From NCBI GenBank assembly GCA_964354975.1, contig CAYHBS010000003.1:4086-68085 (forward strand): a stretch of DNA of 64,000 nucleotides. Reading direction: 5' to 3'. Positions within the stretch are counted from its first letter, which is position 1; the number at the start of each line of letters is the position of its first letter. Below are positions 16,384 through 63,179 of this stretch, in pieces. This DNA comes from an uncultured Candidatus Saccharibacteria bacterium. GTDB lineage: Bacteria > Patescibacteriota > Minisyncoccia > Ryanbacterales > HO2-45-13. The translations under genes were made by a program, and so were the position numbers. Below the pieces are notes generated by a model that was not told the origin of the DNA, did no database searches, and worked only from the letters and a program-made list of their open reading frames with translations.

Positions 16384-18597
16384 TTACTGTGCGCCAATGG
16401 ATTTCAGCCATTCATCCACGGTTTGCGTGAATTCAGGATTCATTTGCTTTGCTTTCTTAGCGAACTCAATCGCCGCTTGTTTGTTTCCAAGATCCAGTGA
16501 CGTCTGCGCAAGCACGAGATTCATATAGGCGGTTCCATCAGGACTCACTGTATACTTGGTGATAAATTGCATAAATAGGAGTCGCTTATTCGGTTCAGGA
16601 ATGCGCATCACACGCTGCATAAAACTATCGATTTCCTCATTGTTCAGTTTTGTAATGCCATGTTCGGCAATATACGTTTCAAGAAATAACTGGGCCGACT
16701 GCGTGTCCTGCGCCTGCAAAAGCACATTCACAATCGGTGCCATCAGCGAACGCATGCGTCCCGAAATATCATAAGCTGTCGTAACAAGCGCAAGCGCCTC
16801 CACTTTCTTTTCCCTCGCAAGTTGGAGTTCCGCGTAACTCAAATAGTTTTGAATATACCCCGGAGCCTCGGTGATCGCCGCCTTGTAAAGCTCGTCCGCC
16901 CTGTCTCCTGCTGCACCACGTGAATCTTGGATCGCGAGAAGACGCCCAAGTAGTAATCGGTTTTTGAGTACCTGGGGCTCCGCAGCAACTTGCTCCTCCA
17001 TTTTTGCTACCGCCTCCGCAAGGAGTTTATTAGTCACGTCGTTACGCTCAGAAGATCTTAATGAAAGCTCCATCGCAATGATACCGAAGCGCTCGCGTAG
17101 CTCTCGAGAACCAAAGGTGTTTAATGCAAGCACCTCATTCATACGGGTCGCTATCTCTTCAAGAGTTTTTTGCTGCTGAAAAAACTGTAATACGTCAATA
17201 GTTCCTGTTGCCGCTTGAATTGGACGTACGTTGAGAAATAGCACTAGGAGCACCACAGAGACGAGCGCACCTGCTGGCACCATTGAGGCGATGGCTGGTT
17301 CTGCTGGCTTTATATTTTTGCTGCCATGTTCTACCGAGAACGTGTGCAAAAATGCGAGTGCAAACGCCAGGGTTAAATATGTGGTGATGCTATCAAACAC
17401 AAAGAAGTTCTGCATGAGATACGCGCCGTAGCCTCCCGCAAAAGCAAGGGCGACTGCAGATGAAATGACGCGCTTTTTCCACAATCGCCAGAGTGTATAG
17501 AGCGCCGCCACATGAATAGAGAGAAATGCGATAAATCCAAGAATGCCCGCATCCACTAACCACTCCAAAAACACATTGTGAGTGCGATCAAACCACGGTT
17601 CGTTTCCGTAGAGCGTCGGATTGTAATACTTGGCAAATGGCACAATAAACGTATCGGGCCCCCACCCGAGCACTGGGCGCTCACGCGCAGCCTCAATTGC
17701 CATTCCCCAAATTTTGATGCGGGGCTGATTTTGAATGTCAGTAAAAGACGTACCTGCAACTCGATTAAACAGAGGCACCGAGCGCACAACCGCGCTCTGC
17801 GGATACGCTTTAATTCCTGTAAGTAACGCTATACCAGCAATAACTGCCGCGAGTGCGCCGTACCTGAGTATTTTTTGTTTGGAAAAAATCAGCACCAGCA
17901 TTGTCATCGTCCCCACGCCCGCAAGAAGACCCACAAACGCTCCGCGACTTGCAGGAAGGAGAAAGGCTCCAAGCAACACCAACTCTAAGGTAATGAGCGT
18001 CCAACGCTTGAGTTGGTTCTTCCACTCACTCGCAAGGAGCCCTCCGACCACGAACATGTGTGTCATGAGATATACCGCGAGATAGATGAAGTTTCCAAAC
18101 GTTGCAAAGGGACGGTTCTCGGTCCCATACCCCTTCATCACATCAAATCCTTCCGCAAGAGTGAACAGCGCAATAAACGTCGCAACTCCAATGCTGACAT
18201 ATGCAAATCGCAACCAATCTGTTTTACTTTTGAGAATATGCGCTGCGGTAAGAAATAGCGCGAAGAGATGCAGATATGTAATCGTCCCCTCCATACGCTC
18301 GAAATTGGACCAGAAACTTTGATACGGATTGACCCCAAGAATTCCCGCAAGCGTGGCGATGCCCACGAACGCTCCGAACGCATATAGCACTATGCTTTTT
18401 CGAGGACGAAATGATGCGTCCAGCACCGCGAGCGATACCCACGCGACAAAGACAATTTCCGTGATGATCCGAAAAAAGAAGTTTTTTCCAGTAATAAACG
18501 GAAAATACATGGATTGAGTCACAATCAACGGAGTGAGGAGCAGTAACCCCAACCCAATGTACGCGACCCACTTGGCAAACGATTCGTAGGAGTTCAT
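16384..18597 (-). CDS. O-antigen ligase/polymerase-like (Wzy_C) polytopic membrane protein with C-terminal TPR repeats
   Basis: About 10 TM helices with Wzy_C-type motifs (SRGAFVGLLAGVG; THNVFLEWLVDAGILG). The C-terminal ~250 aa are TPR-like. Confidence 0.65.
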   Translation of the reverse strand: MNSYESFAKWVAYIGLGLLLLTPLIVTQSMYFPFITGKNFFFRIITEIVFVAWVSLAVLDASFRPRKSIVLYAFGAFVGIATLAGILGVNPYQSFWSNFERMEGTITYLHLFALFLTAAHILKSKTDWLRFAYVSIGVATFIALFTLAEGFDVMKGYGTENRPFATFGNFIYLAVYLMTHMFVVGGLLASEWKNQLKRWTLITLELVLLGAFLLPASRGAFVGLLAGVGTMTMLVLIFSKQKILRYGALAAVIAGIALLTGIKAYPQSAVVRSVPLFNRVAGTSFTDIQNQPRIKIWGMAIEAARERPVLGWGPDTFIVPFAKYYNPTLYGNEPWFDRTHNVFLEWLVDAGILGFIAFLSIHVAALYTLWRLWKKRVISSAVALAFAGGYGAYLMQNFFVFDSITTYLTLAFALAFLHTFSVEHGSKNIKPAEPAIASMVPAGALVSVVLLVLFLNVRPIQAATGTIDVLQFFQQQKTLEEIATRMNEVLALNTFGSRELRERFGIIAMELSLRSSERNDVTNKLLAEAVAKMEEQVAAEPQVLKNRLLLGRLLAIQDSRGAAGDRADELYKAAITEAPGYIQNYLSYAELQLAREKKVEALALVTTAYDISGRMRSLMAPIVNVLLQAQDTQSAQLFLETYIAEHGITKLNNEEIDSFMQRVMRIPEPNKRLLFMQFITKYTVSPDGTAYMNLVLAQTSLDLGNKQAAIEFAKKAKQMNPEFTQTVDEWLKSIGAQ

Positions 18598-18657
18598 AGA
18601 TTGCGATTAGTATGCCACGCGCTACCAAAAATGACAAAAAGCGTTATAGTACTCAAT

Positions 18658-19986
18658 ATGATTAGCAGGTCACAGGCCTATCGATTGCTCCCCGTTATTG
18701 ATGGGGGCATTTTAGTTGCCGCATTGGCGGCAGCGCTTGCATTTCGATTCGGCGGTAGCGCGTTCCAAGATCAATGGAATTTGCACCTTACTCCATTTCT
18801 ACTGGTCTTTTTGCTCTGGATCGTTATTTTCCGAATGCATGATCTCTACAATCCGTACCAGTCTCTGGACGTGCGGAAGCTATTTGAAAATACCCTCCGT
18901 GCGTTTACAATCGACATCGGTGTTGCGACCATTTTTTTCTACGCTATTCCCTATTTCGGTATTACTCCGAGAAAAAATCTACTGCTGATTGGCGGCGTGG
19001 GTATCATCGCATTTGCATGCTGGAGACTCGCGTTTACGCTGTTTATCCGCACCTATGTGCCACTAAAAATATTCCTTATTGGCGACGCGCCTGAAATGCG
19101 TGTGGTTGCGACACATATTGCAGCACACCCAGAACTCGGAATGAGCTCGGAAGTGTATCATGAACTCACTGATACGATGGTTGCCACAATGACTGCTACT
19201 GCACAGAACTATTATGTCGTGCTACCTGAATCAACAAAGTCATCCTCCACGCTGATGAAACAGATGTATGCGCTGCTCCCTTCTGGTGTCCAAGTGGTCG
19301 ATTTTGCTTCGTTCTATGAACGCCTATTTCAAAAAATTCCTGTTTCGCTGATTACGGAACTTTGGTTTCTTGAACATATTGTTGAAGTAAAGAAGCCCTT
19401 CTTTTCGATGCTCAAGCGTTTTGTAGATATCGTGCTCGGAATTTGCATTGGAGCAATTACCCTTCTCCTCACACCATTGATTGCGCTTGCAATTAAGCTT
19501 GATAGCAACGGCCCAATCATTTTGCCTAATCATTACCGAATTGGGAAAAATGGTAAAAGATTTCAGTTATATAAGTTTCGATCAATGGGAAATAATGCTG
19601 AGAAACATGGTCCACAATGGACGCAAAAAAATGACCCACGAATTACTCGGGTTGGGAAATATTTGCGCGAACTACGTCTTGATGAGCTACCCCAAGTGTT
19701 AAATATTTTAAAAGGAGACATGTCTTTTATTGGCCCCCGACCAGAACGCCCAGAGTTTGTTGAAGGTTTAAAAAAAGAAATTCCCTTCTATGACATGCGC
19801 CACCTCGTAAAGCCGGGGCTTTCCGGATGGGCACAAATCAATCCTCCCTACTACTACGCTGGCACGGACGAAACAATCATCAAATTGCAATATGATCTCT
19901 TTTATATTAAAAATAGAAGCACGATGCTGGATGCATCAGTGCTGCTCAAAACGGTCGCCGTGCTCCTCTCTCGTAGGGGACATTAA
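18658..19986 (+). CDS. polyprenyl-phosphate sugar-1-phosphate transferase (bacterial sugar transferase, WbaP/PglC-type initiating PGT)
   Basis: KFRSM and DELPQVLNILKGDMSFIGPRPERPEFV signature motifs plus N-terminal TM helices. The start is moved to ATG 18658 (MISRSQ). Confidence 0.8.
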   Translation: MISRSQAYRLLPVIDGGILVAALAAALAFRFGGSAFQDQWNLHLTPFLLVFLLWIVIFRMHDLYNPYQSLDVRKLFENTLRAFTIDIGVATIFFYAIPYFGITPRKNLLLIGGVGIIAFACWRLAFTLFIRTYVPLKIFLIGDAPEMRVVATHIAAHPELGMSSEVYHELTDTMVATMTATAQNYYVVLPESTKSSSTLMKQMYALLPSGVQVVDFASFYERLFQKIPVSLITELWFLEHIVEVKKPFFSMLKRFVDIVLGICIGAITLLLTPLIALAIKLDSNGPIILPNHYRIGKNGKRFQLYKFRSMGNNAEKHGPQWTQKNDPRITRVGKYLRELRLDELPQVLNILKGDMSFIGPRPERPEFVEGLKKEIPFYDMRHLVKPGLSGWAQINPPYYYAGTDETIIKLQYDLFYIKNRSTMLDASVLLKTVAVLLSRRGH

Positions 19987-19987: not shown

Positions 19988-21043
19988 TTAATATGTATTT
20001 CTTAACGTAATCTGTTCGTCCGGAGCAATATGTTGTTTCGCCCTGCGCCCAATAATGTGATTAAGTTGCTCTGGTCCTAATCCACCAATCAGTGGCCGCT
20101 TGAACAGTATATGGCTTTCGGTAATGTTTTCACCCCGAGTTATTTTTCGTGCAGCGACAATACTCTGCCCTGCCCACAGACGACTTTTATTGAGCGATTT
20201 TTTTGTAGAAAGATCTCGAAAAACCATACTTGCTTCTACATCTCGCGCCGCAGAAACAAACGTGATAAATTCATCCGACAACAATGCGCCGGGATTGTCC
20301 AATGATCGTGGGTCAGATTTATCAAAAGTAATATGTTTTTCCATTACTTTTATGCCCATCGCAATAGCAGCTAAAGGCACGTGATATCCGACCGTGTGAT
20401 CCGAATACCCTACAGGCCCCGTCACCATGTGTTGGAGCTCATAAATTTGTCGGAGTGCCGCATGTTGTGGTTTTGTGGGATATTCCGTTGTGCAATGTAA
20501 TGGAATCACCGATGGCGTTCCGCGCGAAACAAGTAGACGCACGCTGGACTGAATCTCTTTAGGAGTATGCATGCCAAACGAAATAATAACCGGTATTTTT
20601 TTTGATGCGACATGTGACAAAAATCGATGGTTATGCGCCTCACCCGATCCAACTTTAATACAATCCACCCCAAGCGCTACGAGCTTGTCCACACTTTCCT
20701 CATCGTGCGGACTCGCAAAACACGTAATGTGCTTTTTTTGTGCGTACGCAAACAATTTTTTTAAATTAGTAAACGACAGTTCCCGAGATTTCAGGCGCGT
20801 ATACCAGTTATACCCTAATTTCTTTTGATATTTTTGCGCCGAAACCTTTGAAACTAGAGACGCAGTATTCCACAGTTGAAATTTTATGGCATCGGCTTTT
20901 GCAGCAACCGCCGCATCAATTTGTTTTTTCGCGAGCGCATACTGGCCATAATTTGTCACTCCTCCCTCACAAATGATAAAAACGGGGTGACCGTCCCCGA
21001 TAGTGTGTTTGCCAATACGAATGGTGCGACTTGTTCGAATCAT
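19988..21043 (-). CDS. NeuB-family nonulosonic acid (sialic-acid-type) synthase, copy 1
   Basis: VFIICEGGVTNYGQY...ADAIKFQ at the start of the TIM barrel, and a C-terminal SAF domain (IVAARKITRGENITESHILFKRP). A GAGGTAGCT Shine-Dalgarno precedes ATG 21043. Confidence 0.75.
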   Translation of the reverse strand: MIRTSRTIRIGKHTIGDGHPVFIICEGGVTNYGQYALAKKQIDAAVAAKADAIKFQLWNTASLVSKVSAQKYQKKLGYNWYTRLKSRELSFTNLKKLFAYAQKKHITCFASPHDEESVDKLVALGVDCIKVGSGEAHNHRFLSHVASKKIPVIISFGMHTPKEIQSSVRLLVSRGTPSVIPLHCTTEYPTKPQHAALRQIYELQHMVTGPVGYSDHTVGYHVPLAAIAMGIKVMEKHITFDKSDPRSLDNPGALLSDEFITFVSAARDVEASMVFRDLSTKKSLNKSRLWAGQSIVAARKITRGENITESHILFKRPLIGGLGPEQLNHIIGRRAKQHIAPDEQITLRNTY

Positions 21044-21094
21044 AGCTACCTCAATGTATACTACTATTATACCTATTGTACGCAGTTCCATCAG

Positions 21095-21128
21095 CATAGA
21101 AAAGAGGGTCGCACATGTGCGACCCTCT
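21095..21128 (-). terminator. perfect-palindrome terminator (AGAGGGTCGCACATGTGCGACCCTCT + TTTTCT on minus strand)
   Basis: An 11-bp perfect stem with a 4-nt loop between the sqdB stop and the NeuB copy-1 start. Confidence 0.5.
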
Positions 21129-21136: not shown

Positions 21137-22306
21137 TCATGGCTTCCATTTTACCGTCGGCATGATAACTTCCGGTTCGATGTTCCGCTTCGCAGCGATC
21201 ACCGACCCCATCATCTCAGCTATCACCTCGTCAGTAAGCAAGTGCGGATGCAGACCGAGCGAAATCAGTGAGGAATTCTTCGCATTGTAGTAGTGCTCTT
21301 CGCTCTCTACTCTTGGGTTTCCGATCGATGCCATAGTGGCGTCGATTCCAAACTCACTATTTGCGACGTACTGCACGCGGCGCGCCAGCTCATTCACCGA
21401 ATACTGCTCAGTAAACTGATTGAACACTCGGAACTCTCCTTTCTCCGCTGGATGTGTCACTGCAAGCTCCACACACTGTAATGTATCGAGAATGTTGAGA
21501 TATCCGCGCGTTTGACCTCCGCGACCGTACACCGTGAGCGGAACACCCGATACAGCCTGCACGATGAAGCGGTTTAGAGCAGTGCCAAATACTCCGTCGT
21601 AGTGAAAGCTCGTAACAAATCCATCCGCAAGCAACGTCTCCGGCGTATGAATGCCGTAGACAACGCCCTGATTGAGGTCGGTAGCGCGCAACCCCCACGA
21701 TCGACAGGCGAACTCGATGTTCACACTGTCTGCAACCTTTGAAGCGTGGTAGAACGATCCCGGACGCTTTGGATACAGCATTCGATCTTTTCTCCCGCGA
21801 TGCTCAATCTCGATCCACCCCTCCTCAATATCGATGTTCGGAGTGCCGTACTCGCCCATCGTCCCAAGCTTCACCAGATGCGCATCAGGCACGATATCGC
21901 GCATCGCGAACAAAATGTTCAGCGTGCCAACAATGTTGTCCGCCTGCGTACGTGTTGCGCGCGAACGAGACATCATTGAATACGGTGCGGACGGCTGTTC
22001 GGCGTAATGGATGATCGCGTCGGGCAGAAACTCTCTCACAAACCCCAACGTTGCGCCGGGATTTGCAGCGATGTCTACCACATTCCCCTGCGGGAGCGCG
22101 ATCTCCGTTCCCTGCCCCGAGCGATTCCACAATCGCACGCGTTTTTGTAGCGTCGGCCGCGAGAAGAGTGGTTCACCGCCTACTTCTTCCTCCCATCTTC
22201 GTTTCGCTAAGCTATCAGCGATCGCTACAGAGTGTCCTCGCCTGGCAAAATACATTACGGTGGGCCAACCGAGATAGCCATCTCCACCAAGCACCATGAT
22301 GTTCAT
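21137..22306 (-). CDS. sqdB: UDP-sulfoquinovose synthase (SQD1/SqdB/Agl3 family)
   Basis: Near-colinear identity with the SQD1 sequence as I recall it: MVLGGDGYLGW, SAPYSM, GTMGEYGTPNIDIEEG, ATDLNQGVVYG, DGVFGTALNRF, TVYGRGGQTRGYL, EFRVFNQFTEQYSVNELA, NPRVESEEHYYNAKN, IMPTVKWK. AGGAGG precedes the ATG at 22306. Confidence 0.85.
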   Translation of the reverse strand: MNIMVLGGDGYLGWPTVMYFARRGHSVAIADSLAKRRWEEEVGGEPLFSRPTLQKRVRLWNRSGQGTEIALPQGNVVDIAANPGATLGFVREFLPDAIIHYAEQPSAPYSMMSRSRATRTQADNIVGTLNILFAMRDIVPDAHLVKLGTMGEYGTPNIDIEEGWIEIEHRGRKDRMLYPKRPGSFYHASKVADSVNIEFACRSWGLRATDLNQGVVYGIHTPETLLADGFVTSFHYDGVFGTALNRFIVQAVSGVPLTVYGRGGQTRGYLNILDTLQCVELAVTHPAEKGEFRVFNQFTEQYSVNELARRVQYVANSEFGIDATMASIGNPRVESEEHYYNAKNSSLISLGLHPHLLTDEVIAEMMGSVIAAKRNIEPEVIMPTVKWKP

Positions 22307-22378
22307 GTATCCAACCTCCTTTCTCGTAAGTACAAACTAACCGTACGCTACGTTGAATGAAGTGTTCTGTCAAGTGTT

Positions 22379-24252: not shown

Positions 24253-25361
24253 AGCAATTTCACATCAGTAAGCGTGATCGGGGAAAACTGGGTCAGTGCG
24301 TGCATTACTTGCTTCCCAACGAGCTCTGCATAATCCTGAGCAAGTGCGCCCGGAATCAGTGCACGTGGGCGCATAGCCGCAAGATCTGTCTCCTCAATAG
24401 TCTCTCCCTCACGGATATCCCGCACTACCACGAGCGACTTATTAAAAAATGGGCGAAATGTATTATGCGCCCCTTCAAATTCTTTATCAATATCCCCATA
24501 AAAGGCCTCTGGAGATGCCGCTACATATGTCCCTGAGCGCACGGCGCGTACTAGTTCCTTCATTTCATGGGGTAACATGGACACCTTATGATCCGGCCCC
24601 CACGCATCACGCGACAAACTAAAATGTTTTTCTATCATTCTCGCCCCTATTTTGATCGCGGCAAGTGCAACGTCCATTCCAAGCGAATGATCGGAAAAAC
24701 CAACAATTGCATGTGGGTACGCGTCCTTCAGATACTGAATTGATGCTAAGTTAAATACTTCAGGTGGACATGGGTATTGGCTCACACAATACAGTATAAT
24801 CGGAGTTACCCGTGCGCGTGCCAAGTGCTGCATCACTGCCTGTAACTCTTGTCGGCTCACCATTCCCGTGGAAATGATGATGGGTTTTTTGAAACTCACA
24901 AGGGTATCAAGTAGAAGATAATCTAGTACGTCCGCAGATCCTACTTTCCATAGTGACATGCCGAGTTCAGACATTTGGATTGCAGCTCCTTTACTCATGG
25001 GAGTGGTGAACATGCGCATATGCTTTTCTGCACAATATATACTGAGCGGGCGCCAAAATGCATCCATCGGAGTCTGACGCGTGTTGCGCTCAACCCATCG
25101 ATATCGATCGTTCGCAGGAAAATGTGGGGAAACAATGGGAATATTAAGTTGTTCATCAGCAACATGATGTGTCTGAAACTTCACCGCATCAACACCAGCG
25201 TCCACGGCGGCGTCCACAAGCAACTGTGCGCGACGCAGTAATGTTTCAACAGATTCTTCCTCCTCGGTCACAATAAAATTCTTTCCAATTTCAGCAACAA
25301 TAAAGACGTCCCTCCCCGATCGTCGCTCTAAATCATTCAACGTCATTGCATGCATATCCAT
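24249..25361 (-). CDS. NeuB-family nonulosonic acid synthase, copy 2
   Basis: FIVAEIGKNF...GVDAVKFQTH and a C-terminal SAF domain. Confidence 0.8.
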   Translation of the reverse strand: MDMHAMTLNDLERRSGRDVFIVAEIGKNFIVTEEEESVETLLRRAQLLVDAAVDAGVDAVKFQTHHVADEQLNIPIVSPHFPANDRYRWVERNTRQTPMDAFWRPLSIYCAEKHMRMFTTPMSKGAAIQMSELGMSLWKVGSADVLDYLLLDTLVSFKKPIIISTGMVSRQELQAVMQHLARARVTPIILYCVSQYPCPPEVFNLASIQYLKDAYPHAIVGFSDHSLGMDVALAAIKIGARMIEKHFSLSRDAWGPDHKVSMLPHEMKELVRAVRSGTYVAASPEAFYGDIDKEFEGAHNTFRPFFNKSLVVVRDIREGETIEETDLAAMRPRALIPGALAQDYAELVGKQVMHALTQFSPITLTDVKLL

Positions 25362-26803
25362 TGGTATAACGCATCCGCTACCCTTTGACTAGAGTTACCA
25401 TCCGCATATGTACATTGCTCACGTACAAGTCGCATTCTGCCATTATGATGAGTGGATGGAACGCGAAGTGTTGCGGTGATAAGATCACGCAGTTCATGTG
25501 AAGATTGAGCGAGTTGTATTCCTCCCGTCAGTATGGCATTCCGATAATGTTCCGTTCCATAGAAAAACGTTGGCGAACGAAGCGGATTGATATTTTTGCG
25601 CAACTCAAAATTAATATTAATCACAGGAATATCAAGTATTGCAGCGTCGATCGAAAAACTCGAAGCGTAACATACTACGAGGGCTGCATTTGAAAGCGTT
25701 TCTCGCAGTTGTTGGAGTTGCTCAAAATTCATATCCCAATCTCCACCACGATGCTTCGCAAATCGCTTTGATGGTATTTCGTACCGCAACCAGGGTCGAC
25801 GAGCAATTTCATCATCTTGGATTACATCGTTCGGAGGAAACCGTACAAATAATTTCCATGCGTACACGTCGCGCGCGTCCACTTCAAATTGATGTAAGAG
25901 ATCAATCATATCCCAATCAGAATTGCTAAATGCACTTCCAATGGGACTGTACAGCACTATGCGATCATTCGGATCACAACCAATACGTTCTCCGTGTACG
26001 GCTCGGCTCGCATATGGTGGTAGTTGATGTCCATAAAACGTAGCTACTTCATGGAGAGCCTCCGGACGCACGTACATATCATATTGTGGAAGCCCCACGG
26101 TACGTATGCGGCTCGGAGGAACATCTTGAAATCGTTCCATTTGCGTCACTAATACATCGTTGTACACCGTGTATTGATCTGTTAGTACACGCATTGCGGA
26201 GCGCGCAGTAATTTTATCCCAACTATTCATATAGCCCACCGTGCGTATTCCCATGCGGCGCGCTTCTTTTATCAATTCAACTTCGTCAGGATCCATTTGA
26301 TTTGCGATCATCACGAGATTTGGTCGAATAGACGAAAGAATTTCTTGATAGAAATTTCCAGTGTTGATACTCGCGTCCAATCTTCGGATAGTAGCGCGTA
26401 TGAATGGACGCGCGAGAAGAAAGTGTAAAATAAGTTTATAGTAATAAAATACTATGCCTCCCTTTGTGGCGCTCAGCATACGCGCGCGGAGTGTCGTCGT
26501 GCGAGAGCGCAACATATAATACCGGAGTATTTCAAATGTGTGCTCTCTCCAGTCCGTTTTCCCTGCTCTCCCTGAGTGCACAATAAATTGTATGCGCTCG
26601 TGTTGTATTTCATGGCGGTAGTACTCTAATCGTTCCTGATTTTTTACTAACATCACAACGCGGACATCTTCGTGTTTCAGTAAGTGCATCATGACTCCTG
26701 TGCGTAACAAATTTTTCCCTTCGATACCTTCAAAGATGGGAAGTAGGAGCGTATACGTGGTGGGCACAGTGTGTGTATGCATGAACTCGTTAGCCTTCAT
26801 CAT
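25343..26803 (-). CDS. TagF-like (CDP-glycerol glycerophosphotransferase-like) GT-B family protein, paralog 1
   Basis: Shares family motifs with the three other paralogs: G(I/V)R(T/V)(V/I)G(Y/M)xxSWD(K/N)(I/L); GLPQYDMY; VVCYASSFSIDAAILDIPVININFE (DYSS-like region of Glyphos_transf); C-terminal REQC. Confidence 0.45.
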   Translation of the reverse strand: MMKANEFMHTHTVPTTYTLLLPIFEGIEGKNLLRTGVMMHLLKHEDVRVVMLVKNQERLEYYRHEIQHERIQFIVHSGRAGKTDWREHTFEILRYYMLRSRTTTLRARMLSATKGGIVFYYYKLILHFLLARPFIRATIRRLDASINTGNFYQEILSSIRPNLVMIANQMDPDEVELIKEARRMGIRTVGYMNSWDKITARSAMRVLTDQYTVYNDVLVTQMERFQDVPPSRIRTVGLPQYDMYVRPEALHEVATFYGHQLPPYASRAVHGERIGCDPNDRIVLYSPIGSAFSNSDWDMIDLLHQFEVDARDVYAWKLFVRFPPNDVIQDDEIARRPWLRYEIPSKRFAKHRGGDWDMNFEQLQQLRETLSNAALVVCYASSFSIDAAILDIPVININFELRKNINPLRSPTFFYGTEHYRNAILTGGIQLAQSSHELRDLITATLRVPSTHHNGRMRLVREQCTYADGNSSQRVADALYQWICMQ

Positions 26804-26848
26804 AATGAAAGAATGGGGAACACCGCAAACGCGACGCTCCCCATATTG

Positions 26849-32539: not shown

Positions 32540-32605
32540 ATTACCAATAATAATCGAATGCGCAGGCATTCTCAAGCACTAACGCTTTTGACGTGCCCGA
32601 AGTTA

Positions 32606-38672: not shown

Positions 38673-38716
38673 ATCGTGTATGCTAGAATAGCGTATTAAT
38701 GCTCCCCTGAACATCT

Positions 38717-43863: not shown

Positions 43864-43872
43864 ATTAACGCG

Positions 43873-45051: not shown

Positions 45052-45086
45052 TCTATCAGATTGTGCGCCCCGTGCACAGTGGAATA

Positions 45087-46995: not shown

Positions 46996-46998
46996 ATG

Positions 46999-47439
46999 CT
47001 ACCAAGGAAAATTAATCATAGGATCATCGTATGGAATATGTTCAATAGGGGGACGCGCAGGATCATATGCTTTTCCTGCGTGATATAAAATACCCATTGG
47101 AGTATCTCCTAATGACTGATACCCGTGCGCGACACCGGGAGGAATAGCATACGCTTCGAGTACACTTCCACTCACCTGACACTCATACTGCTCTCCAAAT
47201 GTTGAAGAGTTCTTGCGCGCATCATAAAAAACCAATCGCGCGGTACCTTTGATGACTACCCACATTTCCCAGTACGTGTCGTGTATGTGAAATCCCTTAA
47301 CCACCCCGGGATGAGTTTCGCTGTAGCTCGTTTGTTTGATCTCGTGGAACGTGGGCTCCCCCTCCTTGATCAGCTCGGCAAAAAAACCACGCGCATCTTC
47401 GTGCTTCTGCACTGATTTATGGGTGAGGTCGTTGATCAT
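46999..47439 (-). CDS. dTDP-4-dehydrorhamnose 3,5-epimerase (RmlC)-like cupin
   Basis: DARGFFAEL...VKGFHIH...WVVIKGTARLVFYD...IPPGVAHGYQSL. Confidence 0.6.
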   Translation of the reverse strand: MINDLTHKSVQKHEDARGFFAELIKEGEPTFHEIKQTSYSETHPGVVKGFHIHDTYWEMWVVIKGTARLVFYDARKNSSTFGEQYECQVSGSVLEAYAIPPGVAHGYQSLGDTPMGILYHAGKAYDPARPPIEHIPYDDPMINFPW

Positions 47440-48373: not shown

Positions 48374-49971
48374 GGCTTACGCTTGTATATAAGGAGGGTA
48401 CCTCCATCATTGCCCTCAGTGTATTTTCTTGGGTATACATTTTTAACTGTCTCAACAAGCTGGAATTGATTATTGAGCATAGCACGAAACGTAGCAATGC
48501 GCGCATCGGTATCTTCCCCCTCCCCCCAAAATGGGTTCCTGCGCAGTCCCTCGAACCCGGTTTCTTTATGTATTAACACCACATCGGCGTCATGTGCGAG
48601 CCAGTTATTCAGTATGTCCCAGTTATAAAACCCAATGCTGCGGATATAAGCGGTGTCTTCAGAATTTACGAAAAGGAAGTTCCGCTGCAGCAGCGGCGCA
48701 AACACTCTCCGATCAGCGAGAAAAGCGTGGTAAAGCGAGTCATCAAATGTTAAAATATTATCTTCTTTTTCCGTTAGCGCAGCAACATGCTCCGCACCAA
48801 TACGTACACGCTCAAGATCTGAAATATCATGTGGGTTCGCGATAATATCCTTTCGGTACTGCAATGTTCCATTTAACAGAATCACCGCGCACAACAATAT
48901 CATCGCGACGCTACGTTCAATCCGTATTGCTCGGTAGCTCACTACAATGAACAAGATCACAAACGGCATGAAGTAATTCGCATAATACACATTCCCTTCG
49001 AGCTTCCAATAAAAATAATGTGCGCCCATCATGCTCATTGCGTACATCCAAATGAGCAACGGGATCTTGTGATCCCGCGTATATGCGCTCCGGCGCATGC
49101 CATGTTCACGAATTATCAACACCGTTGCGACGAAGAACAGCAGCAAAAATCCATAATACTCACGCACAAAATCACTTAGGTTAGTGATAAACGAATCAAA
49201 GGTCTGCGCGAGTGTGGAAGCTTGCAACTGACTCATGATGCCTACGCTGACAATCGGACTCACTACGTCGCTCAGCGCAACGGTGGGGTTATAACGAATT
49301 ATGGGAATATATCCGAGCACAACAACAACGATAACTATGGCTGCCCACAAAGCAACGCTGCGGGCGTGGTACCTAGCCACTATCTGAAACAACAAATATG
49401 CTAGGAGTGCGGGTAAAAAATTGATACGCGAAAGCAATAGGAGTCCGAAGAGTAATCCGTTGAGCAGTGCTTTGTAGTTACGACGAATATCAATCAGTTC
49501 CACTACGACAGTGAGCATGAGTAGCAATGTTGCGAGCGCATACATCGTGACAGTGATGTAATTGGATACAAGTAGTACATTCGAAACAAGTAGCGCAGCA
49601 GCAGCCGCGGCCGCGCGTTTACCAGAAAGCCGGGCAGCTACCCACAACATCACTGCATACAGCATCACAAAAAAACAAGCAGCCAGTATGCGCCCCGCGT
49701 AGATGCTTGGACCAAACAAATACTGCACATACCCAAACGTCGGAATCACAAACGGAGGGTATGACATAATACTGTCCACATATGGCACAAACTCCCCTGT
49801 CAGTATGAGATAGCTCTTGAACGACGCGAGTATTTCATCTATCCATGTTTCGCGATAGACGAGGAGCACTGCAGACTCAATCATCAGCACTGCGCTTGCT
49901 ACGATGATAATGATTTCATCGATGTACTTGTGAAGTAAAACGAACCTCTGAGTGTGTCGTGCCACATTCAT
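48370..49971 (-). CDS. GT-C fold polytopic membrane glycosyltransferase (ArnT/PMT-like)
   Basis: 533 aa with ≥11 TM helices. It is immediately downstream of, and translationally coupled to, the GT2 polyprenyl-P sugar synthase. Confidence 0.5.
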   Translation of the reverse strand: MNVARHTQRFVLLHKYIDEIIIIVASAVLMIESAVLLVYRETWIDEILASFKSYLILTGEFVPYVDSIMSYPPFVIPTFGYVQYLFGPSIYAGRILAACFFVMLYAVMLWVAARLSGKRAAAAAAALLVSNVLLVSNYITVTMYALATLLLMLTVVVELIDIRRNYKALLNGLLFGLLLLSRINFLPALLAYLLFQIVARYHARSVALWAAIVIVVVVLGYIPIIRYNPTVALSDVVSPIVSVGIMSQLQASTLAQTFDSFITNLSDFVREYYGFLLLFFVATVLIIREHGMRRSAYTRDHKIPLLIWMYAMSMMGAHYFYWKLEGNVYYANYFMPFVILFIVVSYRAIRIERSVAMILLCAVILLNGTLQYRKDIIANPHDISDLERVRIGAEHVAALTEKEDNILTFDDSLYHAFLADRRVFAPLLQRNFLFVNSEDTAYIRSIGFYNWDILNNWLAHDADVVLIHKETGFEGLRRNPFWGEGEDTDARIATFRAMLNNQFQLVETVKNVYPRKYTEGNDGGTLLIYKRKP

Positions 49972-51365
49972 ACCGCAGAAAATAAGATATCAACGATACG
50001 CTTTCCGCTGTGGCGATCTAATGGACCGCAGACCGTATCTCTTAATTCCTTCCGTTTATCGCCGTCACTACTACCATCGCGTACATAGGTTTGAAGCGCG
50101 ACGAGCAAATCATCAAAGTTTAGAGCACGGTGCATTGCCCCAGAAAGTAATACTTCTTTAAAGTGATCCATTTGTTCAAAGCGCCGAATTGATTTGCGAT
50201 ACGGAAGCGCATGATACCCATCAAATGGAGTTGCAATGATTGGACGATCGTAGAGCGCCGCTTCAAGCACCATGGTCGTATATACCGCGAGCACAACATC
50301 CGCGTGGCGCAGGATATTCGTAAAATAGATGCTCCTGTCAAGATCTCCCCAAAATTCTTTCTCATAAATACGTACTCGAGGGTGATCTTTAAAGGTAGAA
50401 AATTTAATCTCATCAATTGTGCGATCTTTTGTCCTCCCGCTGATATACGGTCGAATGACAATGTGCATCTTCTCCCCTAATTTCCCTTCATCAATCCATC
50501 TCAGCATCGTCTCAATAATGTCTGGTTCGTGTGGACAATATGCGCTCCCCGATATGTAGAGAATATATTTCGACCCGTCGGGCAAACCTAATTGTTGAAT
50601 CAGTGAAGCACGCGGTACCGCATACGATTCGTTAAGCATAAAATCGAAGTGTGGGTATCCCACAACCCGTATTGCTGACTGATCGTATGATTGGTGTTTT
50701 ATCGCAGCTCTGCCCACTTGCGCACTCGGCACTAATAATTCGTCGACATGAAATGGTAAATAATATTTATCGAGATGATCCCAACCTGCGGGCATACCGA
50801 TGGTACGCACGCCTCGTCTATACGCTTCTGCAAGTATGTGTATATCGAATAGCCCATAAATATGAGTGGAAAAAACGAGATCTGGTCGATACGTATCAAA
50901 CAATTCTTGAAAGGGTCGCGCCGCATTAACGCGAATAAACATCTGTGGCACAAAAATATTCCGAATCCATTGAGATTTTCCAAACGTCAACGCAATACAC
51001 TGCTTGATGGGAGCAAGATATCGCTTGCCTCCTGCGGCCGGTTCATCTGGTCGAGTCCCCATTGTGGCCATGAGCGCCGTCGTATGGGTGTAAAGCAGGT
51101 AAGAATAAAAAAAATGAAATAGTTTTTCGCGCAACCGCTTGGGATATTTTACTTCAGCGTACGTGACGATACATCCCGCCGCTGTAGCTGTGGTAAAAAA
51201 TTGTTCATACTTTCCTTTTCTGCCCTCCTCAAGGAGAAACACTACGCGCACCTGCTGGGAATGCTCCTTCACATGCACTACAAGTAAATCAAGAAAGCTC
51301 CCCGGGAAAAAACAAAGGTTACGAAACGCTGCAGAAGACGCAATAGGGATAAAAATTGTTTTCAT
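49968..51365 (-). CDS. TagF-like GT-B family protein, paralog 3
   Basis: GVRTIGMPAGWDHL; GYPHFDFM; VVLAVYTTMVLEAALYDRPIIATPFDG. The start is placed at MKTIFIP (ATG 51365, 4-nt overlap with the upstream stop). Confidence 0.45.
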   Translation of the reverse strand: MKTIFIPIASSAAFRNLCFFPGSFLDLLVVHVKEHSQQVRVVFLLEEGRKGKYEQFFTTATAAGCIVTYAEVKYPKRLREKLFHFFYSYLLYTHTTALMATMGTRPDEPAAGGKRYLAPIKQCIALTFGKSQWIRNIFVPQMFIRVNAARPFQELFDTYRPDLVFSTHIYGLFDIHILAEAYRRGVRTIGMPAGWDHLDKYYLPFHVDELLVPSAQVGRAAIKHQSYDQSAIRVVGYPHFDFMLNESYAVPRASLIQQLGLPDGSKYILYISGSAYCPHEPDIIETMLRWIDEGKLGEKMHIVIRPYISGRTKDRTIDEIKFSTFKDHPRVRIYEKEFWGDLDRSIYFTNILRHADVVLAVYTTMVLEAALYDRPIIATPFDGYHALPYRKSIRRFEQMDHFKEVLLSGAMHRALNFDDLLVALQTYVRDGSSDGDKRKELRDTVCGPLDRHSGKRIVDILFSAV

Positions 51366-52741
51366 AGAGTATGTATGATTGCACGTGCAACACGTTCGGC
51401 GGACTTGCCGTCTGTCATATAACATTGCTCTTGAACAATACGCGCCCTCCCCTCACGCAGCATTGCAGGAACCTGCAATGCATCGTTGAGCGCAGTAACC
51501 ATTTCGTCGGCAGAATGCACAATAGCAATACCATTCAGTGTACGGATCTTTGCAAGATGATTCCAGTCAAAAAAACGTCGCGCAGAATTCCAGTATGGCC
51601 GCCGCAAAGCGCCATCAAACGCAACGCCGACAATCGGCTTATCCAATATTGCTGCTTCAATAAAAAATGTGGAATACATGGTGACAACGACATCGGCGTA
51701 GATAAGACTATGATGCAAAAAATTTACTGCCTCGTCTGTAAATTCCCAATTATGCACAGTGTCAGCAACGTGCCCAACAGCTGATACAACAAAAAATCGA
51801 TATGCGGACCGCATGCGTTCCATGCGTTTTTCAGAGAAATCGTAGCGAGGATATGGACGAATAAGTACGTTGACGGACTCGCTGAGTGCGTGCGCCTCAA
51901 GAGATTCATGTAAGATGCGCAAAATATCAAACTCGATATCAAGCGCTGCTTTCCCTGAAAATGCGTACAAAATGGTTTTTTTACTTGGATCTGCGCCGAT
52001 ACTGTTGAGAAATTCTTCTCGCGACATTGTCACTCGGCCCGAAAAATACCGATCATATTGGGGAATGCCCGTGATACACACGCGATTCCTTGGAAAATCG
52101 CCGTATGTTGCAGCAAGTTCAAGAATTTCCGGTGTATGTACGAGCAGCGTATCCGGATGCACACGAATGATCGTCTTACTATATAGATTATCCCAGCTTA
52201 ATATCATACCCACTACTCTCACGCCTCTCCTCCGCGCAACTTTGGCAAGAATATGATCTTCGCTATGAATGACATTGGAACAATACACGACATCAGGATT
52301 GTAGCGATCCAGCAGCGAATCAAATGTATGATCGGAGAAGCGAGCATAACTCCAACGAATCATTCTTCTCCACCATGAAAATTGGCCTAAACAACCACAC
52401 ATCACTTCCACGGGATACAAGAGCAACGTACGAATCCCATTCCACGAAAAAGAAAAATTACTTTGAAATAGATAAGTGCGTTGCATGCGCGCTGTTCTAC
52501 TATGAATACTTGCGCGTTCAATGAATTGAAAGAATGTCTCCACCACGGGTCGTTGCAATTCTGGCAATACATCGAAGGTGATCGATGACTCGGGAAATTC
52601 CAAAGCGTAATACTCTACTTTTTCCTTTGGCACTAACACCACTAATCGATCCCCCGGTTGCTCAATGATAATCCTAGCTGCGTCAGTGCGCAGAAAATTT
52701 CTTACAAAAAATCCGTCGTGTATTGCCGTCAAAATTGTCAT
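51362..52741 (-). CDS. TagF-like GT-B family protein, paralog 4
   Basis: GVRVVGMILSWDNL; GIPQYDRY; VVVTMYSTFFIEAAILDKPIVGVAFDG; QEQC. Confidence 0.45.
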   Translation of the reverse strand: MTILTAIHDGFFVRNFLRTDAARIIIEQPGDRLVVLVPKEKVEYYALEFPESSITFDVLPELQRPVVETFFQFIERASIHSRTARMQRTYLFQSNFSFSWNGIRTLLLYPVEVMCGCLGQFSWWRRMIRWSYARFSDHTFDSLLDRYNPDVVYCSNVIHSEDHILAKVARRRGVRVVGMILSWDNLYSKTIIRVHPDTLLVHTPEILELAATYGDFPRNRVCITGIPQYDRYFSGRVTMSREEFLNSIGADPSKKTILYAFSGKAALDIEFDILRILHESLEAHALSESVNVLIRPYPRYDFSEKRMERMRSAYRFFVVSAVGHVADTVHNWEFTDEAVNFLHHSLIYADVVVTMYSTFFIEAAILDKPIVGVAFDGALRRPYWNSARRFFDWNHLAKIRTLNGIAIVHSADEMVTALNDALQVPAMLREGRARIVQEQCYMTDGKSAERVARAIIHTL

Positions 52742-60838: not shown

Positions 60839-61959
60839 ATGTGAGATGCCTGCAATACTGCACTAATTTTCTGTGCTATGGAATCCCACGCGTACCGATC
60901 TCGGACCAACAACATCGAATTCGCAATAAATTGTTTTCCCTGCTCTTTTTGTCTGATCGTAGATACTGCGCGTATCACAGCCGCGGTATCGTCAGGCATA
61001 ACCGAAATGCCGGTATCTCCATCTTTTAGAAAGTCCGGAATACCGCCAACGCGCGTAGCGATTATAGGAAGTCCAGCAGCCATGGCTTCAAGAAATGCAG
61101 TGCCCAGACCCTCGGATTTTGATAAACGGATAAACGCATCAGAAGCATGAAGATAGGGCGGCACTTCTTCAAGCGGAACGGATCCCACAAAAATAACGCG
61201 GTCGGATACACCAAGTGATTTTGAAAGTGTAATAAGCGACGCGCGGAGTGGTCCCTCCCCCACCATCATAAATCCGACATCAGGCATTCCTGGGAGCGCG
61301 CGAATCACATCGGCAAGTCCGTTTTTTTCAACGAGGCGTGAAACGGATACTAGTACGAATGAAAAGCGTGACAGCGCGTATTGGCGTTGAATTTCTGCAA
61401 TGCGCGCAACATTGCGACGTGAAAATAATGCAACATCTACGCCATTTGGAATAATGTGGATTTCTTTTTGGTATCCAAAATGACGCGCAAGATCCGCAAG
61501 ATAATTACTAATTGCGTGTACCTCATTTGCAACCGACAGAAGTCTCTTCCACCACAATGGCACGAGACCAAATTTTCTCCCCTCAATCACGTCCCCTTCC
61601 TGCAACGTAAGAATGAGTCGAAGGTCGGGGTTCTTGCGTTTCAAATAGTACCCTGCAATAGATGCGTAGGAAACCATGACACACCACAGGGAAGTCTCGG
61701 GACGCAGGAGGCGCTTCCCTGCTCGGTACGCAAGCACCGGGAGTAGATATTTATCAACGGCACTTCCAATGCCAAGTCTGTGAATCACAATATTGCCCTG
61801 CACTTCGTACGCGGGAAGGTTCCTATAAAACCGCGCGGTCAGCACCGTAAACTGTACGTCGGGAATACGACGCATCACTTCGCGCGCGGCAAGTTCAGCC
61901 CCTCCAATAAAGGGGTCATATGCGGTCGTCAGTACAATTACATCTCGTTGAGGAGTCAT
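60835..61959 (-). CDS. glycosyltransferase family 4
   Basis: GLGTAFLEAMAAGLPIIATRVGGIPDFL. The start is placed at MTPQRDV. Confidence 0.75.
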   Translation of the reverse strand: MTPQRDVIVLTTAYDPFIGGAELAAREVMRRIPDVQFTVLTARFYRNLPAYEVQGNIVIHRLGIGSAVDKYLLPVLAYRAGKRLLRPETSLWCVMVSYASIAGYYLKRKNPDLRLILTLQEGDVIEGRKFGLVPLWWKRLLSVANEVHAISNYLADLARHFGYQKEIHIIPNGVDVALFSRRNVARIAEIQRQYALSRFSFVLVSVSRLVEKNGLADVIRALPGMPDVGFMMVGEGPLRASLITLSKSLGVSDRVIFVGSVPLEEVPPYLHASDAFIRLSKSEGLGTAFLEAMAAGLPIIATRVGGIPDFLKDGDTGISVMPDDTAAVIRAVSTIRQKEQGKQFIANSMLLVRDRYAWDSIAQKISAVLQASHI

Positions 61960-61985
61960 TAGAAATACTATATTATAGTGGCACA

Positions 61986-63179
61986 ATGTCGGAAAAAATC
62001 CGAATACTCTACGTCAGCACTAAATCCGTCTGGGGCGGCGCACAAAAATATGTCTACGACCTCGCAACCGGCCTTGATCGATCCAAATTTGATGTGGCGG
62101 TTGCCGCGGGCGGAGACGGAGCGCTGAAAACACGCCTCGATGCGGCAGGGGTTCGCTTTATTTCAATCCCCCACATTGCCAGGGACGTGAATATCACCGA
62201 TGAATGGAACGCTTTTTGGGCGCTCCGACGCGTGATCCGTACCGAACGGCCGGATATTATTCATTTTAATGGTTCCAAGGCTGGAACTATGGGTGCTTTT
62301 GCCGCTAAATTGGGCGCAAGACATGCAAAACTCGTATACAGCACACATGGCATTCCGGTGCTAGAAGAACGCCCAAAATGGCAAAAAAGGCTCATTTTAT
62401 ATAGTCTCCGCTCCGCTGGGCTCCTTCTTGACTCGGTGGTTGCCATATCACGCAAAGACTACCAGACCACACTGAACGCGGGTATTGCAACACCGAAACA
62501 ACTCATCTTTATCCCTATTAGTATTCAGCCCCGTGACTACACATTCCTTCCAAAAAAGACTGCGCGAGAAGAGCTCGCTCGCCGCGCGGGACTTGCCCAC
62601 AGTGCGTTTGTCGGAAAATTCTTGTTTGGATGTATCGGCGAGTTTGTTGCCAATAAAAATCAGATTGATCTCATCCGCGCGGTGGCGGGGATTGTTGAAA
62701 AAAATCCCGCAGAGCGCCAACGTGTGCGACTGGTACTGATTGGTTGGGGCGATACCGAAGATGTACTCCTTAATGAAATCCGTCTGCTCCAGCTCACTGA
62801 CATCGCGCATGTACTCGCAAGCACCAATACCGACGCGCGATACATGAAAGCATTTGATACGTTCGTGCTTTCGTCAATGAAAGAAGGACTGCCGTATGTG
62901 CTCCTGGAGGCGGCACTCGCGAAAGTACCCATGATCGCCACCGCAGTGGGAGGGTCCCCGGAAGTGGTGATTCATCGAGATACTGGATCTCTCGTTCCCG
63001 CGCATAACGTGCCACGCCTAGTTGAAACCATGCAAACGTTTCTGCGCGACGAAAAATTACGGGACGCCTACGGGGAGCGCGCGTTTCAACATGTCCATCG
63101 CGCGTTTTCATTCCATATCATGCGCCAAACCACAGAGCGCCTATACACTACGCTTGCGCGCCCACCCGCAACTTCCTAG
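61986..63179 (+). CDS. glycosyltransferase family 4 (divergent from the array)
   Basis: [27 protein letters not shown]-domain; [30 protein letters not shown]-domain. Confidence 0.75.

Follow-up and report, generated by a model that had tools for sequence, protein, structure and literature searches.

A compact 47-kb locus predicted to build an acidic, methylated and probably protein-linked glycan in a Paceibacteria bacterium

The window analysed here, a 64-kb stretch of DNA (64,000 nucleotides) from an uncultured bacterium, carries at positions 16384-63179 a compact glycan-assembly locus of ~47 kb. With open reading frames (ORFs) of at least 80 aa as the gene model, the locus comprises 43 ORFs, 40 of which are encoded on the minus strand. 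A sequence-only reading had already outlined this interval as a compact glycan locus, but with 44 genes and only two of them off the minus strand. The interval and its compactness stand, whereas the plus-strand genes number three: an initiating polyprenyl-phosphate glycosylphosphotransferase (PGT) at 18601-19986, a methyltransferase at 38717-39415 and the last GT4-type glycosyltransferase (GT) at 61920-63179. All 59 long ORFs of the window were scanned against Pfam, and selected ORFs against NCBIfam with its equivalog cutoffs used as stated. The organism is, as judged from its SecA, a member of the Paceibacteria in the Candidate Phyla Radiation (CPR), because this protein is 84-91% identical to that of two uncultured relatives, 61% to that of Candidatus Ryanbacteria and 51-58% to those of Patescibacteria/Paceibacterota.

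We propose, with moderate confidence, that the locus would build one long, non-repeating and heavily decorated oligosaccharide on a polyprenyl-phosphate carrier, which would then be attached to an acceptor. The glycan is very probably acidic and methylated, as the earlier reading had it, although the acidity would now come from ulosonic acids and sulfoquinovose. That reading had left the choice between an S-layer or protein O-glycan and a capsule; an oligosaccharide linked to protein or to the wall is now favoured over a capsule.

The genes of the locus are tightly packed. Among the 37 same-strand junctions, 22 are overlapping, 14-15 of them by the exact 4 nt of ATGA, and 13 have a gap of <50 nt; the earlier description of most junctions as ATGA-like overlaps or gaps below 50 nt is thereby borne out for 35 of the 37. 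Only two larger gaps are present, of 72-81 nt (22307-22378) and 188-194 nt (32576-32763). In the left flank, by comparison, overlaps are found at 1 of 13 junctions (Fisher p = 0.0013), and overlaps or gaps <50 nt at 4 of 13 (p = 1e-5). Co-directionality, on the other hand, is no special mark of the glycan locus, since every confidently called gene of the left flank (1-16 kb; SecA, MurB and others) lies on the minus strand as well, and the GC skew is negative over the entire window.

A WaaL-like Wzy_C protein among the core assembly genes

One PGT, one Wzx and one Wzy_C protein are encoded within the 47 kb, and these core domain calls of the sequence-only reading hold on profile search:

16384..18597, minus strand: putative WaaL-like ligase/oligosaccharyltransferase with a C-terminal tetratricopeptide repeat (TPR) domain (Pfam Wzy_C, 75 bits)
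18601..19986, plus strand: large WbaP/WcaJ-type initiating PGT (Bac_transf, 203 bits; TIGR03025, 340 bits against a cutoff of 296)
30300..31730, minus strand: Wzx-type flippase (Polysacc_synt PF01943, 38 bits against a threshold of 28.2)

The PGT, with a likely start at 18631, has four transmembrane (TM) helices and is 82% and 65% identical in the closest relatives. Wzx has at least six TM helices in a simple hydropathy scan and a 47% identical ortholog in the relative L093; the NCBIfam scan gave no match for it.

The Wzy_C protein consists of 737 residues; residues 1-454 contain 11 TM helices, and a helical domain of ~280 aa forms the C-terminal part. The TPR read into this domain before is faint by Pfam in the protein itself, but clear in its orthologs and in the structure model. 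The AlphaFold2 model (pLDDT 88) has WaaL (PDB 7TPG) as the sole membrane-protein fold match among the top ones (TMt 0.65, rmsd 5.9), and its C-terminal part fits TPR superhelices. Residues 340-354, HNVFLEWLVDAGILG, fit the WaaL ligase motif H[NSQ]X9GXX[GTY] (as quoted in bioRxiv 10.1101/2022.10.31.514599). Of 42 orthologs, 41 have this motif; among shuffled sequences, which served as the reference, 69 of 5000 do (1.4%). Alignment of the 42 orthologs revealed that R218, R293, H340 and the motif WFDRxHN are invariant; R218 and R293 are candidate counterparts of E. coli WaaL R215 and R288. At least 758 Patescibacteria homologs share the same length and architecture, most of them with clear TPR domains.

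Despite different adjacent glycan genes, the protein is 83% identical in the relative L099 and 74% in L100. An enzyme that is conserved while its cargo changes is less readily explained as a repeat-unit polymerase than as a ligase or oligosaccharyltransferase of relaxed specificity, and on its motif and modelled fold the protein looks like the latter. No other candidate polytopic polymerase was found in the locus by the Pfam scan of the window ORFs. The TPR domain suggests that the acceptor is a surface protein.

In the fit of its transmembrane part to WaaL, the protein resembles the Wzy_C enzymes of the WaaL/PglL/PilO/WsaB type, and a ligase kept within the lineage while the glycan varies implies relaxed glycan specificity. 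It differs from classical WaaL and PglL in the TPR domain, which both of them lack, and from the setting of WaaL in that the organism has no lipopolysaccharide (LPS) core to ligate to. We presume that it is comparable to the S-layer O-oligosaccharyltransferases WsaB and WsfB. In some relatives, two tandem Wzy_C paralogs are found by murB and the PGT gene (L008 3-3067, L088 4461-8355, L089 12871-16765 and L090 2511-5916).

These features bear on the "Wzy-type" label of the sequence-only reading, which they do not support. A classical Wzx/Wzy polymer, either a capsule or an S-layer glycan, would require that the Wzy_C protein polymerises and that the TagF-like proteins described below add glycerol- or ribitol-phosphate, giving a teichoic-acid-like anionic polymer; we consider this unlikely. 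The Wzy_C domain is indeed found in some polymerases, but the only such protein here has the motif and fold of WaaL and is kept across differing glycan genes, unlike repeat-unit-specific polymerases. In addition, no Wzz/PCP or GNVR domain was detected by Pfam in any of the 59 window ORFs, although Wzz could be encoded elsewhere in the genome, and the fourteen GT-B enzymes of the locus suit one long oligosaccharide more than a short repeat unit.

Sugar precursor modules and the glycosyltransferases

The ulosonic acid genes comprise three NeuB synthases, three CTP_transf_3 cytidylyltransferases and two hydrolysing NeuC-type epimerases, which are arranged together with their partners as follows:

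19988..21097, minus strand: NeuB-family ulosonic acid synthase 1 (NeuB1; NeuB + SAF domains; NeuB, 211 bits)
22379-23089, minus strand: module I, CMP-sugar synthetase (CTP_transf_3, 82 bits)
23086-24252, minus strand: module I, hydrolysing NeuC-type 2-epimerase NeuC1 (Epimerase_2, 223 bits; NeuC_NnaA, 346 against a cutoff of 236)
24249-25361, minus strand: module I, NeuB synthase 2 (NeuB2; NeuB, 201 bits)
26849-27982, minus strand: module II, GFO/IDH/MocA oxidoreductase (Pfam)
27957-28700, minus strand: module II, CMP-sugar synthetase (Pfam)
28697-30256, minus strand: module II, NeuB-cupin fusion NeuB3 (Pfam)
32764-33750, minus strand: module III, 2-hydroxyacid dehydrogenase (Pfam)
33735-34484, minus strand: module III, CMP-sugar synthetase (Pfam)
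34438-35598, minus strand: module III, NeuC-type epimerase (NeuC_NnaA TIGR03568, 364 bits against a cutoff of 236)
35595-36347, minus strand: module III, methyltransferase MT2 (Pfam)

Both NeuC proteins score above the TIGR03568 (NeuC_NnaA) equivalog cutoff. The three CMP-sugar synthetases reach 82-90 bits with CTP_transf_3, and their best NCBIfam match is PseF, not KdsB, at 114-159 bits, which is under the equivalog cutoff of 206. The three NeuB paralogs score 149-211 bits with Pfam NeuB. The N-terminal domain of NeuB3 gives 315 bits to PDB 3G8R, an SpsE-like structure with no assigned function, and its cupin domain weakly resembles lyxose/mannose isomerases. Module I has the same gene order in the relatives L093 and L098, the trio of module II recurs in L093 with 53-62% identity, and a cassette of TagF-like, methyltransferase, Epimerase_2, CTP_transf_3 and 2-Hacid_dh genes recurs in L094-L097. 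Judged from these genes and the synthase described below, the acidic sugars of the glycan are probably three CMP-activated nonulosonic/ulosonic acids together with sulfoquinovose.

In relatives, the second NeuB type is fused to other domains resembling sugar isomerases, in L092 (1-1531) an AP_endonuc_2 TIM barrel, or followed by a HAD phosphatase (L093 5894-8142); these fusions and neighbours hint that the route may run through phospho-sugars, as for Kdn-9-P. We considered, and rejected, the idea that the 21.1-32.7 kb segment was inserted between the 2-hydroxyacid dehydrogenase and NeuB1 of an ancestral NeuC/CMP-synthetase/2-hydroxyacid dehydrogenase/NeuB cassette: in L094 and L095, the NeuB beside the dehydrogenase most resembles NeuB2 (45-46%) and not NeuB1.

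Four TagF-like GT-B paralogs are encoded in the locus, as had been noted earlier, two of them without a Pfam match:

25343..26803, minus strand: TagF-like paralog 4, putative CMP-ulosonic acid transferase (no Pfam match; sole NCBIfam match BFO_1060 family, 27 bits)
36340..37692, minus strand: TagF-like paralog 3, putative CMP-ulosonic acid transferase (GT-B fold model; best NCBIfam match BFO_1060 family, 30 bits)
49968..52741, minus strand: TagF-like paralogs 1 and 2 (Glyphos_transf, 36 and 46 bits; BFO_1060 family, 32 and 60.5 bits)

Paralogs 3 and 4 have no Pfam match, yet they are full-length paralogs of the two with Glyphos_transf domains, and paralog 4 aligns over its full length with the other three at E values of 1e-17 to 1e-40. 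A profile of the family matches TarL (PDB 8VA1, E 5e-6) and Cps3D, with the motifs GxPxxD and YSS...D..KP aligned; a single-sequence PDB search with paralog 2 (TagF2) gave nothing, the two structures being reached by family profiles only. The AlphaFold2 model of paralog 3 (pLDDT 87) adopts a generic GT-B fold. In their N-terminal halves the paralogs conserve an SWD motif, which has no established counterpart.

The best NCBIfam match of all four paralogs is NF046086, the BFO_1060 family, with 60.5, 32.3, 30.2 and 27.0 bits. On these scores they are distant relatives, not members, of that family; BFO_1060 is the Tannerella forsythia transferase of a legionaminic acid (Leg) derivative, a TagB-like GT-B enzyme (PMC5420450). 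TagF2 scores only 23, 17 and 18 bits with TarF, TarL and TarB, respectively (cutoffs 500-1000), which the other three paralogs do not match. At least 242 proteins belong to the family, and nearly all of them are from Patescibacteria. In six of the six relatives sampled, the TagF-like gene is located beside Epimerase_2 or NeuB plus CTP_transf_3, with NeuB in five, and these contexts usually also hold methyltransferase and 2-hydroxyacid dehydrogenase genes. We infer that the TagF-like paralogs may act as CMP-ulosonic acid transferases.

The sequence-only reading had seen in the TagF-like proteins the anionic basis of the glycan, as would the classical Wzx/Wzy polymer with its alditol phosphates. 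It is true that two paralogs exceed the Pfam Glyphos_transf threshold, and that the GT-B fold and the C-terminal CMP/CDP-binding motifs are common to these proteins, TarL and Cps3D; the CDP-alditol genes could, moreover, sit elsewhere in the genome. However, no TagD, TarI/J, TagGH, TagO/TagA or LCP was found by Pfam among the 59 window ORFs. Compared to the TagF/TarL systems of wall teichoic acid, the locus therefore differs in the absence from the window of CDP-glycerol/CDP-ribitol synthesis, TagGH, TagO/A and LCP, as well as in scores of 17-23 bits with TarF, TarL and TarB. Since these genes are missing from the window, the scores are better with the nonulosonic acid (NulO) transferase family, and the genes are linked in all six sampled relatives to those of NulO synthesis (NeuC, CMP-synthetase and 2-hydroxyacid dehydrogenase), teichoic-type phosphodiesters are unlikely.

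Two further precursor systems accompany the ulosonic acid modules. Whereas three precursor modules had been counted before, we count three ulosonic acid modules, one SQD1-type synthase and one deoxy/amino/C-methyl sugar module, the latter two being:

21137..22306, minus strand: SQD1-type UDP-sulfoquinovose synthase homologue (NF041015, 419 bits over the full length, cutoff 575)
41392..47484, minus strand: NDP-deoxy/amino/C-methyl sugar module (DegT, 354 bits; Methyltransf_14, 150 bits)

The SQD1 homologue aligns over its full length (residues 2-388) with Arabidopsis SQD1 (PDB 1QRR; 451 bits, E 2e-134) and keeps the motifs GTMGEYG and SFYHxSK, the latter with the catalytic YHxxK. Proteins named UDP-sulfoquinovose synthase, some of them from other Patescibacteria, share 60-71% identity with it. 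Because a full-length homologue with a retained catalytic motif is encoded, sulfoquinovose is likely a further anionic component. Upstream of this gene is an AAGGAGG Shine-Dalgarno sequence, absent from almost all other genes of the locus, and downstream is a strong terminator. Its counterpart in L098 has 94% identity, compared with only 70-84% for the neighbouring genes there.

The deoxy-sugar module encodes a DegT aminotransferase, a short RmlD-like short-chain dehydrogenase/reductase (SDR), a 226-aa ORF, an NDP-hexose C-methyltransferase, two SDR dehydratase/epimerases and an RmlC-like cupin, all under the NCBIfam equivalog cutoffs. The RmlD-like SDR covers only the N-terminal half of the RmlD profile (positions 2-149 of 287) and is followed by the overlapping 226-aa ORF, which has no family match; the two, together at 42489-43863, may represent a split or remodelled reductase.

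The remaining genes encode methyltransferases, glycosyltransferases and polytopic membrane proteins:

31745..32575, minus strand: S-adenosylmethionine (SAM) methyltransferase MT1 (Methyltransf_23, 75 bits)
37704..38714, minus strand: flippase-like polytopic membrane protein LPG_synthase_TM (PF03706, 97 bits; TIGR00374, 52 against a cutoff of 43)
38717..39415, plus strand: methyltransferase MT3, on the opposite strand and with no spacer on either side (Methyltransf_11, 55 bits)
39412-40377, minus strand: methyltransferase MT4
40298-41395, minus strand: GT-B glycosyltransferase GT1a
47417-48373, minus strand: polyprenyl-phosphate sugar synthase-like GT2 (116 bits), with two C-terminal TM helices
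48370-49971, minus strand: GT-C-like polytopic protein (PMT_2, 22 bits, under the threshold of 26), with nine TM helices
52738..61986, minus strand: eight GT4-type glycosyltransferases and methyltransferase MT6 (53934-54494), with ATGA overlaps at almost every junction
61920..63179, plus strand: tenth GT4-type glycosyltransferase, divergent from the array at the right end of the locus (Glycos_transf_1, 102 bits; likely start 61986)

There are ten Glycos_transf_1-type GT-B enzymes by Pfam, eight solid and two marginal, and six methyltransferases including the NDP-hexose C-methyltransferase. The earlier counts of ten GT4 enzymes and six methyltransferases are thus reproduced, as is the GT2, whereas the GT-C call is weak. 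The best NCBIfam matches of the GT2 are ArnC (190 bits) and PgfS (153 bits). Together with the GT-C-like protein it forms a putative extracytoplasmic decoration branch. In L094 and L095, membrane proteins of 549 and 561 aa occupy the corresponding place; the GT-C-like protein is not significantly similar to them.

Proposed assembly route and its weighing

Our proposal for the assembly of the glycan is as follows. The divergently transcribed PGT would prime the lipid carrier with a hexose-1-phosphate, after which the ten GT4-type and four TagF-like GT-B enzymes, fourteen in all, would lengthen the chain on the cytoplasmic face. The TagF-like paralogs would transfer CMP-activated nonulosonic/ulosonic acids supplied by the three NeuB-centred modules; UDP-sulfoquinovose and an aminated, C-methylated deoxy-hexose would serve as other building blocks, and five SAM methyltransferases would methylate the glycan. 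Once finished, the glycan would be flipped over the membrane by Wzx and handed en bloc by the WaaL-like Wzy_C-TPR enzyme to the acceptor, probably a protein. The GT2/GT-C pair, possibly with the flippase-like protein, could add a sugar outside the membrane.

The logic of the cluster is conventional and its gene set of a known kind. The closest described analogue is a 27-kb polycistronic protein O-glycosylation cluster of T. forsythia, which holds wzx, a module for pseudaminic acid (Pse) or Leg, glycosyltransferases (Gtfs), methyltransferases (Mtfs), asnB and a TagB-like NulO transferase (PMC6120980, PMC5420450), and whose product is one long protein-linked oligosaccharide. Both clusters are co-directional; each encodes Wzx, several glycosyltransferases and methyltransferases, a module for a CMP-nonulosonic acid and a TagB/TagF-like GT-B enzyme as NulO transferase, the latter being predicted here. 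Strain-specific swapping of the NulO type is found in both, and AsnB-like genes, as in the Tannerella cluster, are present in the relatives L099 and L100. However, the present locus is almost twice as large, with three ulosonic modules, four TagF-like paralogs, an SQD1 homologue and a C-methyl sugar module. It also encodes the PGT and the WaaL-like ligase-TPR inside the locus, its paralogs fall outside the BFO_1060 family by score cutoff, and its host is a CPR bacterium with a different envelope.

Several independent glycoconjugate pathways might instead lie side by side, which would be compatible with the proposed route but seems to us rather doubtful as a description of the locus. Such pathways could be those of a NulO-tipped protein glycan (16-37 kb), of a separate glycan or glycolipid made by GT4 enzymes, a sulfoquinovosyl lipid among them (SQD1 with an SqdX-like GT4), and of a polyprenyl-phosphate sugar/GT-C decoration of another polymer, which GT2/GT-C systems classically serve. 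In this direction point the breaks in the array (hairpins at 21.1 and 26.8 kb, the 188-nt gap at 32.6 kb and the three opposite-strand genes), the SQD1 gene with a strong Shine-Dalgarno sequence of its own and a terminator after it, and the different combinations of cassettes in relatives. Nevertheless, there is a single PGT, Wzx and ligase in 47 kb, with no second initiating enzyme or exporter, and the whole set is located between conserved flanks with no unrelated genes interspersed; by Pfam, none of the 59 window ORFs contains an ABC exporter, LCP, acetyltransferase, integrase or transposase domain.

Several points count against the single-oligosaccharide model itself. The three NeuB paralogs fall under every equivalog cutoff (NeuB 400, PseI 340), and an N-acetyltransferase for a Leg or Pse route is absent from the window ORFs. 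The TagF-like paralogs are far under the BFO_1060 cutoff of 200 (27-60 bits) and their fold is generic GT-B; moreover, the six TagF-like contexts were picked via TagF-like matches and show association, not frequency. The Wzy_C domain is common to Wzy polymerases, so that polymerisation by the Wzy_C-TPR protein is conceivable. Finally, a single operon is made less likely by three terminator-like sites of strong or moderate quality and by the three genes on the opposite strand, and the locus may yield more than one product.

Variation at the secA-murB site, borders and flanks

Parts of the locus recur in independent assemblies, which place its source in Hainich groundwater. NeuC1 is residue-for-residue identical on contigs from metagenomes of 0.1-um-filtered water of this site (ERZ1292623 from well H51 and ERZ1292617 from well H52) and in several Logan runs, and the right half of the locus recurs on independent contigs from H51, H52 and SRR32696696, with identical GT4 arrays. 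A metagenome scan with the PGT yielded five loci. The order secA, PurD-like gene (not always present), HPF gene and murB, followed by Wzy_C-TPR and usually the PGT gene, recurs in many relatives. At this anchor L099 is 91% (SecA), 87% (MurB), 83% (ligase) and 82% (PGT) identical to the window, and the ligase of L100 is 74% identical; next to it L099 and L100 carry GT47, AsnB and other GT4 genes, with no NeuB, NeuC or CMP-synthetase gene within 10 kb. Both also have a Methyltransf_21 gene between murB and HPF (L099 13382-14140; L100 13429-14187), where the window has a 72-nt gap (15095-15166). Fifteen genes of the locus are collinear with L093 at the same secA-murB site (34-62% identity), and eight with L098 (70-94% identity). 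Relatives thus hold collinear cassettes at the same site rather than scattered fragments, but the locus is not a fixed unit, as the two closest relatives differ.

The composition of the locus equals that of its flank: the segments of the locus have a GC content of 0.462-0.474, the flank one of 0.467, and none of them stands out in tetranucleotide usage. Since the cassettes are collinear in relatives and the composition is that of the flank, the locus is, as far as sequence comparison can tell, a variable serotype-like region of lineage-internal cassettes at a conserved secA-murB-ligase-PGT anchor, and not a foreign island. A genomic island recently acquired by horizontal transfer from outside the lineage might be suspected from a gene content entirely different from that of the two closest relatives at the same site, and from an SQD1 homologue 60-66% identical to alphaproteobacterial and Chloroflexi proteins. 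We regard it as very improbable: besides the unremarkable GC and tetranucleotide usage, no tRNA was found in the window and no integrase or transposase domain in any of its ORFs, the TagF-like, ligase and cassette genes have their best homologs in Patescibacteria, and the same cassettes occupy the secA-murB site in L093. Exchange within the lineage is more likely than foreign import; in evolution, the secA-murB-ligase-PGT block would be the fixed anchor and the cargo a set of exchangeable cassettes, giving rise to serotype-like diversity.

O-antigen and capsule (K) loci also occupy fixed sites, such as the Acinetobacter K loci with Pse/Leg modules and the E. coli galF-gnd locus. Like them, the present locus has conserved flanks, an initiating PGT, Wzx and swappable glycosyltransferase and precursor cassettes that vary between close relatives. 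It differs from them in having no Wzy separate from the ligase, no Wzz/Wza/Wzc set and no LPS, in the secA-HPF-murB anchor, and in being bigger, with many more transferases than a typical repeat-unit locus.

An attached life on host cells is assumed for CPR bacteria, and to our knowledge almost nothing is known of their surface chemistry. Within the literature searched, no work links nonulosonic acids, sialic acid or sulfoquinovose to Patescibacteria/CPR. We tentatively suggest, as a possibility rather than an expectation, that Paceibacteria share a general surface-glycosylation system, in which a conserved WaaL-like ligase-TPR by murB and the PGT gene would serve plug-in cassettes. Here these would provide up to three sialic-acid-like sugars and sulfoquinovose, installed by the large Patescibacteria family of TagF-like CMP-ulosonic acid transferases, and the resulting serotype-like diversity might govern how these episymbionts attach to hosts and how susceptible they are to phages. 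The locus predicts sialic-acid-like sugars and a sulfosugar on the cell surface, the conserved ligase-TPR as the attachment step, and a fixed site with differing glycan genes in close relatives. If these predictions hold, it would offer markers by which CPR populations could be serotyped, candidate enzymes of a little-known NulO transferase class and a handle on host and phage recognition.

Four hairpin sites punctuate or border the locus:

16282..16304, minus strand: terminator-like hairpin closing the locus on the left (9-bp stem, dG -13, z -1.9, U-tract)
21103..21128, minus strand: strong intrinsic-terminator-like hairpin (11-bp perfect stem, dG -23.9, z -6.1, UUUUCU tail)
26813..26844, minus strand: strong hairpin with the GFO gene on one side and TagF-like paralog 4 on the other (14-bp stem, dG -21.9, z -5.7)
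32718-32766: weak site (dG -17.1, z -0.28)

The first lies downstream of the ligase gene, inside the 341-nt gap before murB. Two internal terminators had been proposed as the only clear ones; that at 21103-21128 is strong, whereas shuffles do as well as the site at 32718-32766, and the hairpin at 26813-26844 had been missed. The latter is GC-rich, and its end is followed after 10 nt by the start codon of TagF-like paralog 4; it may function as a terminator, as an attenuator or in the control of translation.

The strand switches are almost spacerless, with 2, -4, 1 and 26 nt between the genes, and the promoters of the long minus-strand arrays must therefore sit inside neighbouring coding sequence. 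The starts of LPG_synthase_TM (minus) and MT3 (plus) are 2 nt apart and the ends of MT3 and MT4 (minus) overlap by 4 nt (38714-39415), and the starts of the ninth and tenth GT4 genes, GT4i (minus) and GT4j (plus), are 26 nt apart or overlapping (61920-61986). A sigma-70 promoter scan gave fewer matches than shuffles and is uninformative, and no RNA family was found by Rfam in the window.

Further to the left, the region 6037-7169 is ambiguous, with mutually overlapping ORFs on opposite strands, 6167-6598 (minus) and 6222-7118 (plus), neither with a significant Pfam match. Between SecA and HPF a PurD-like ATP-grasp protein is encoded (13283-14698; GARS_A 50 bits, GARS_C 38 bits), which at 91-95% identity in the closest relatives is the best-conserved gene of the neighbourhood. 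Because no other purine-synthesis gene is present in the window, its role may not be that of classical PurD.

Large flanking proteins with carbohydrate-binding (CBM) and PKD domains had been described on both sides of the locus. On the right, a PKD/LTD protein is indeed directly adjacent to the last GT4, whereas on the left 11.5 kb with at least 11 housekeeping genes separate the locus from the CBM_4_9 protein, which belongs to the conserved flank. Beyond the right end of the window (contig L101), no more glycan genes are found in the ~7 kb after the last GT4. There (932-6957) the PKD-LTD protein is seen in full, with 536 aa and a C-terminal TM helix, and is followed by proteins of 227 and 1168 aa that have no Pfam match. 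All three are co-directional with the glycan genes and are candidate surface proteins or acceptors.

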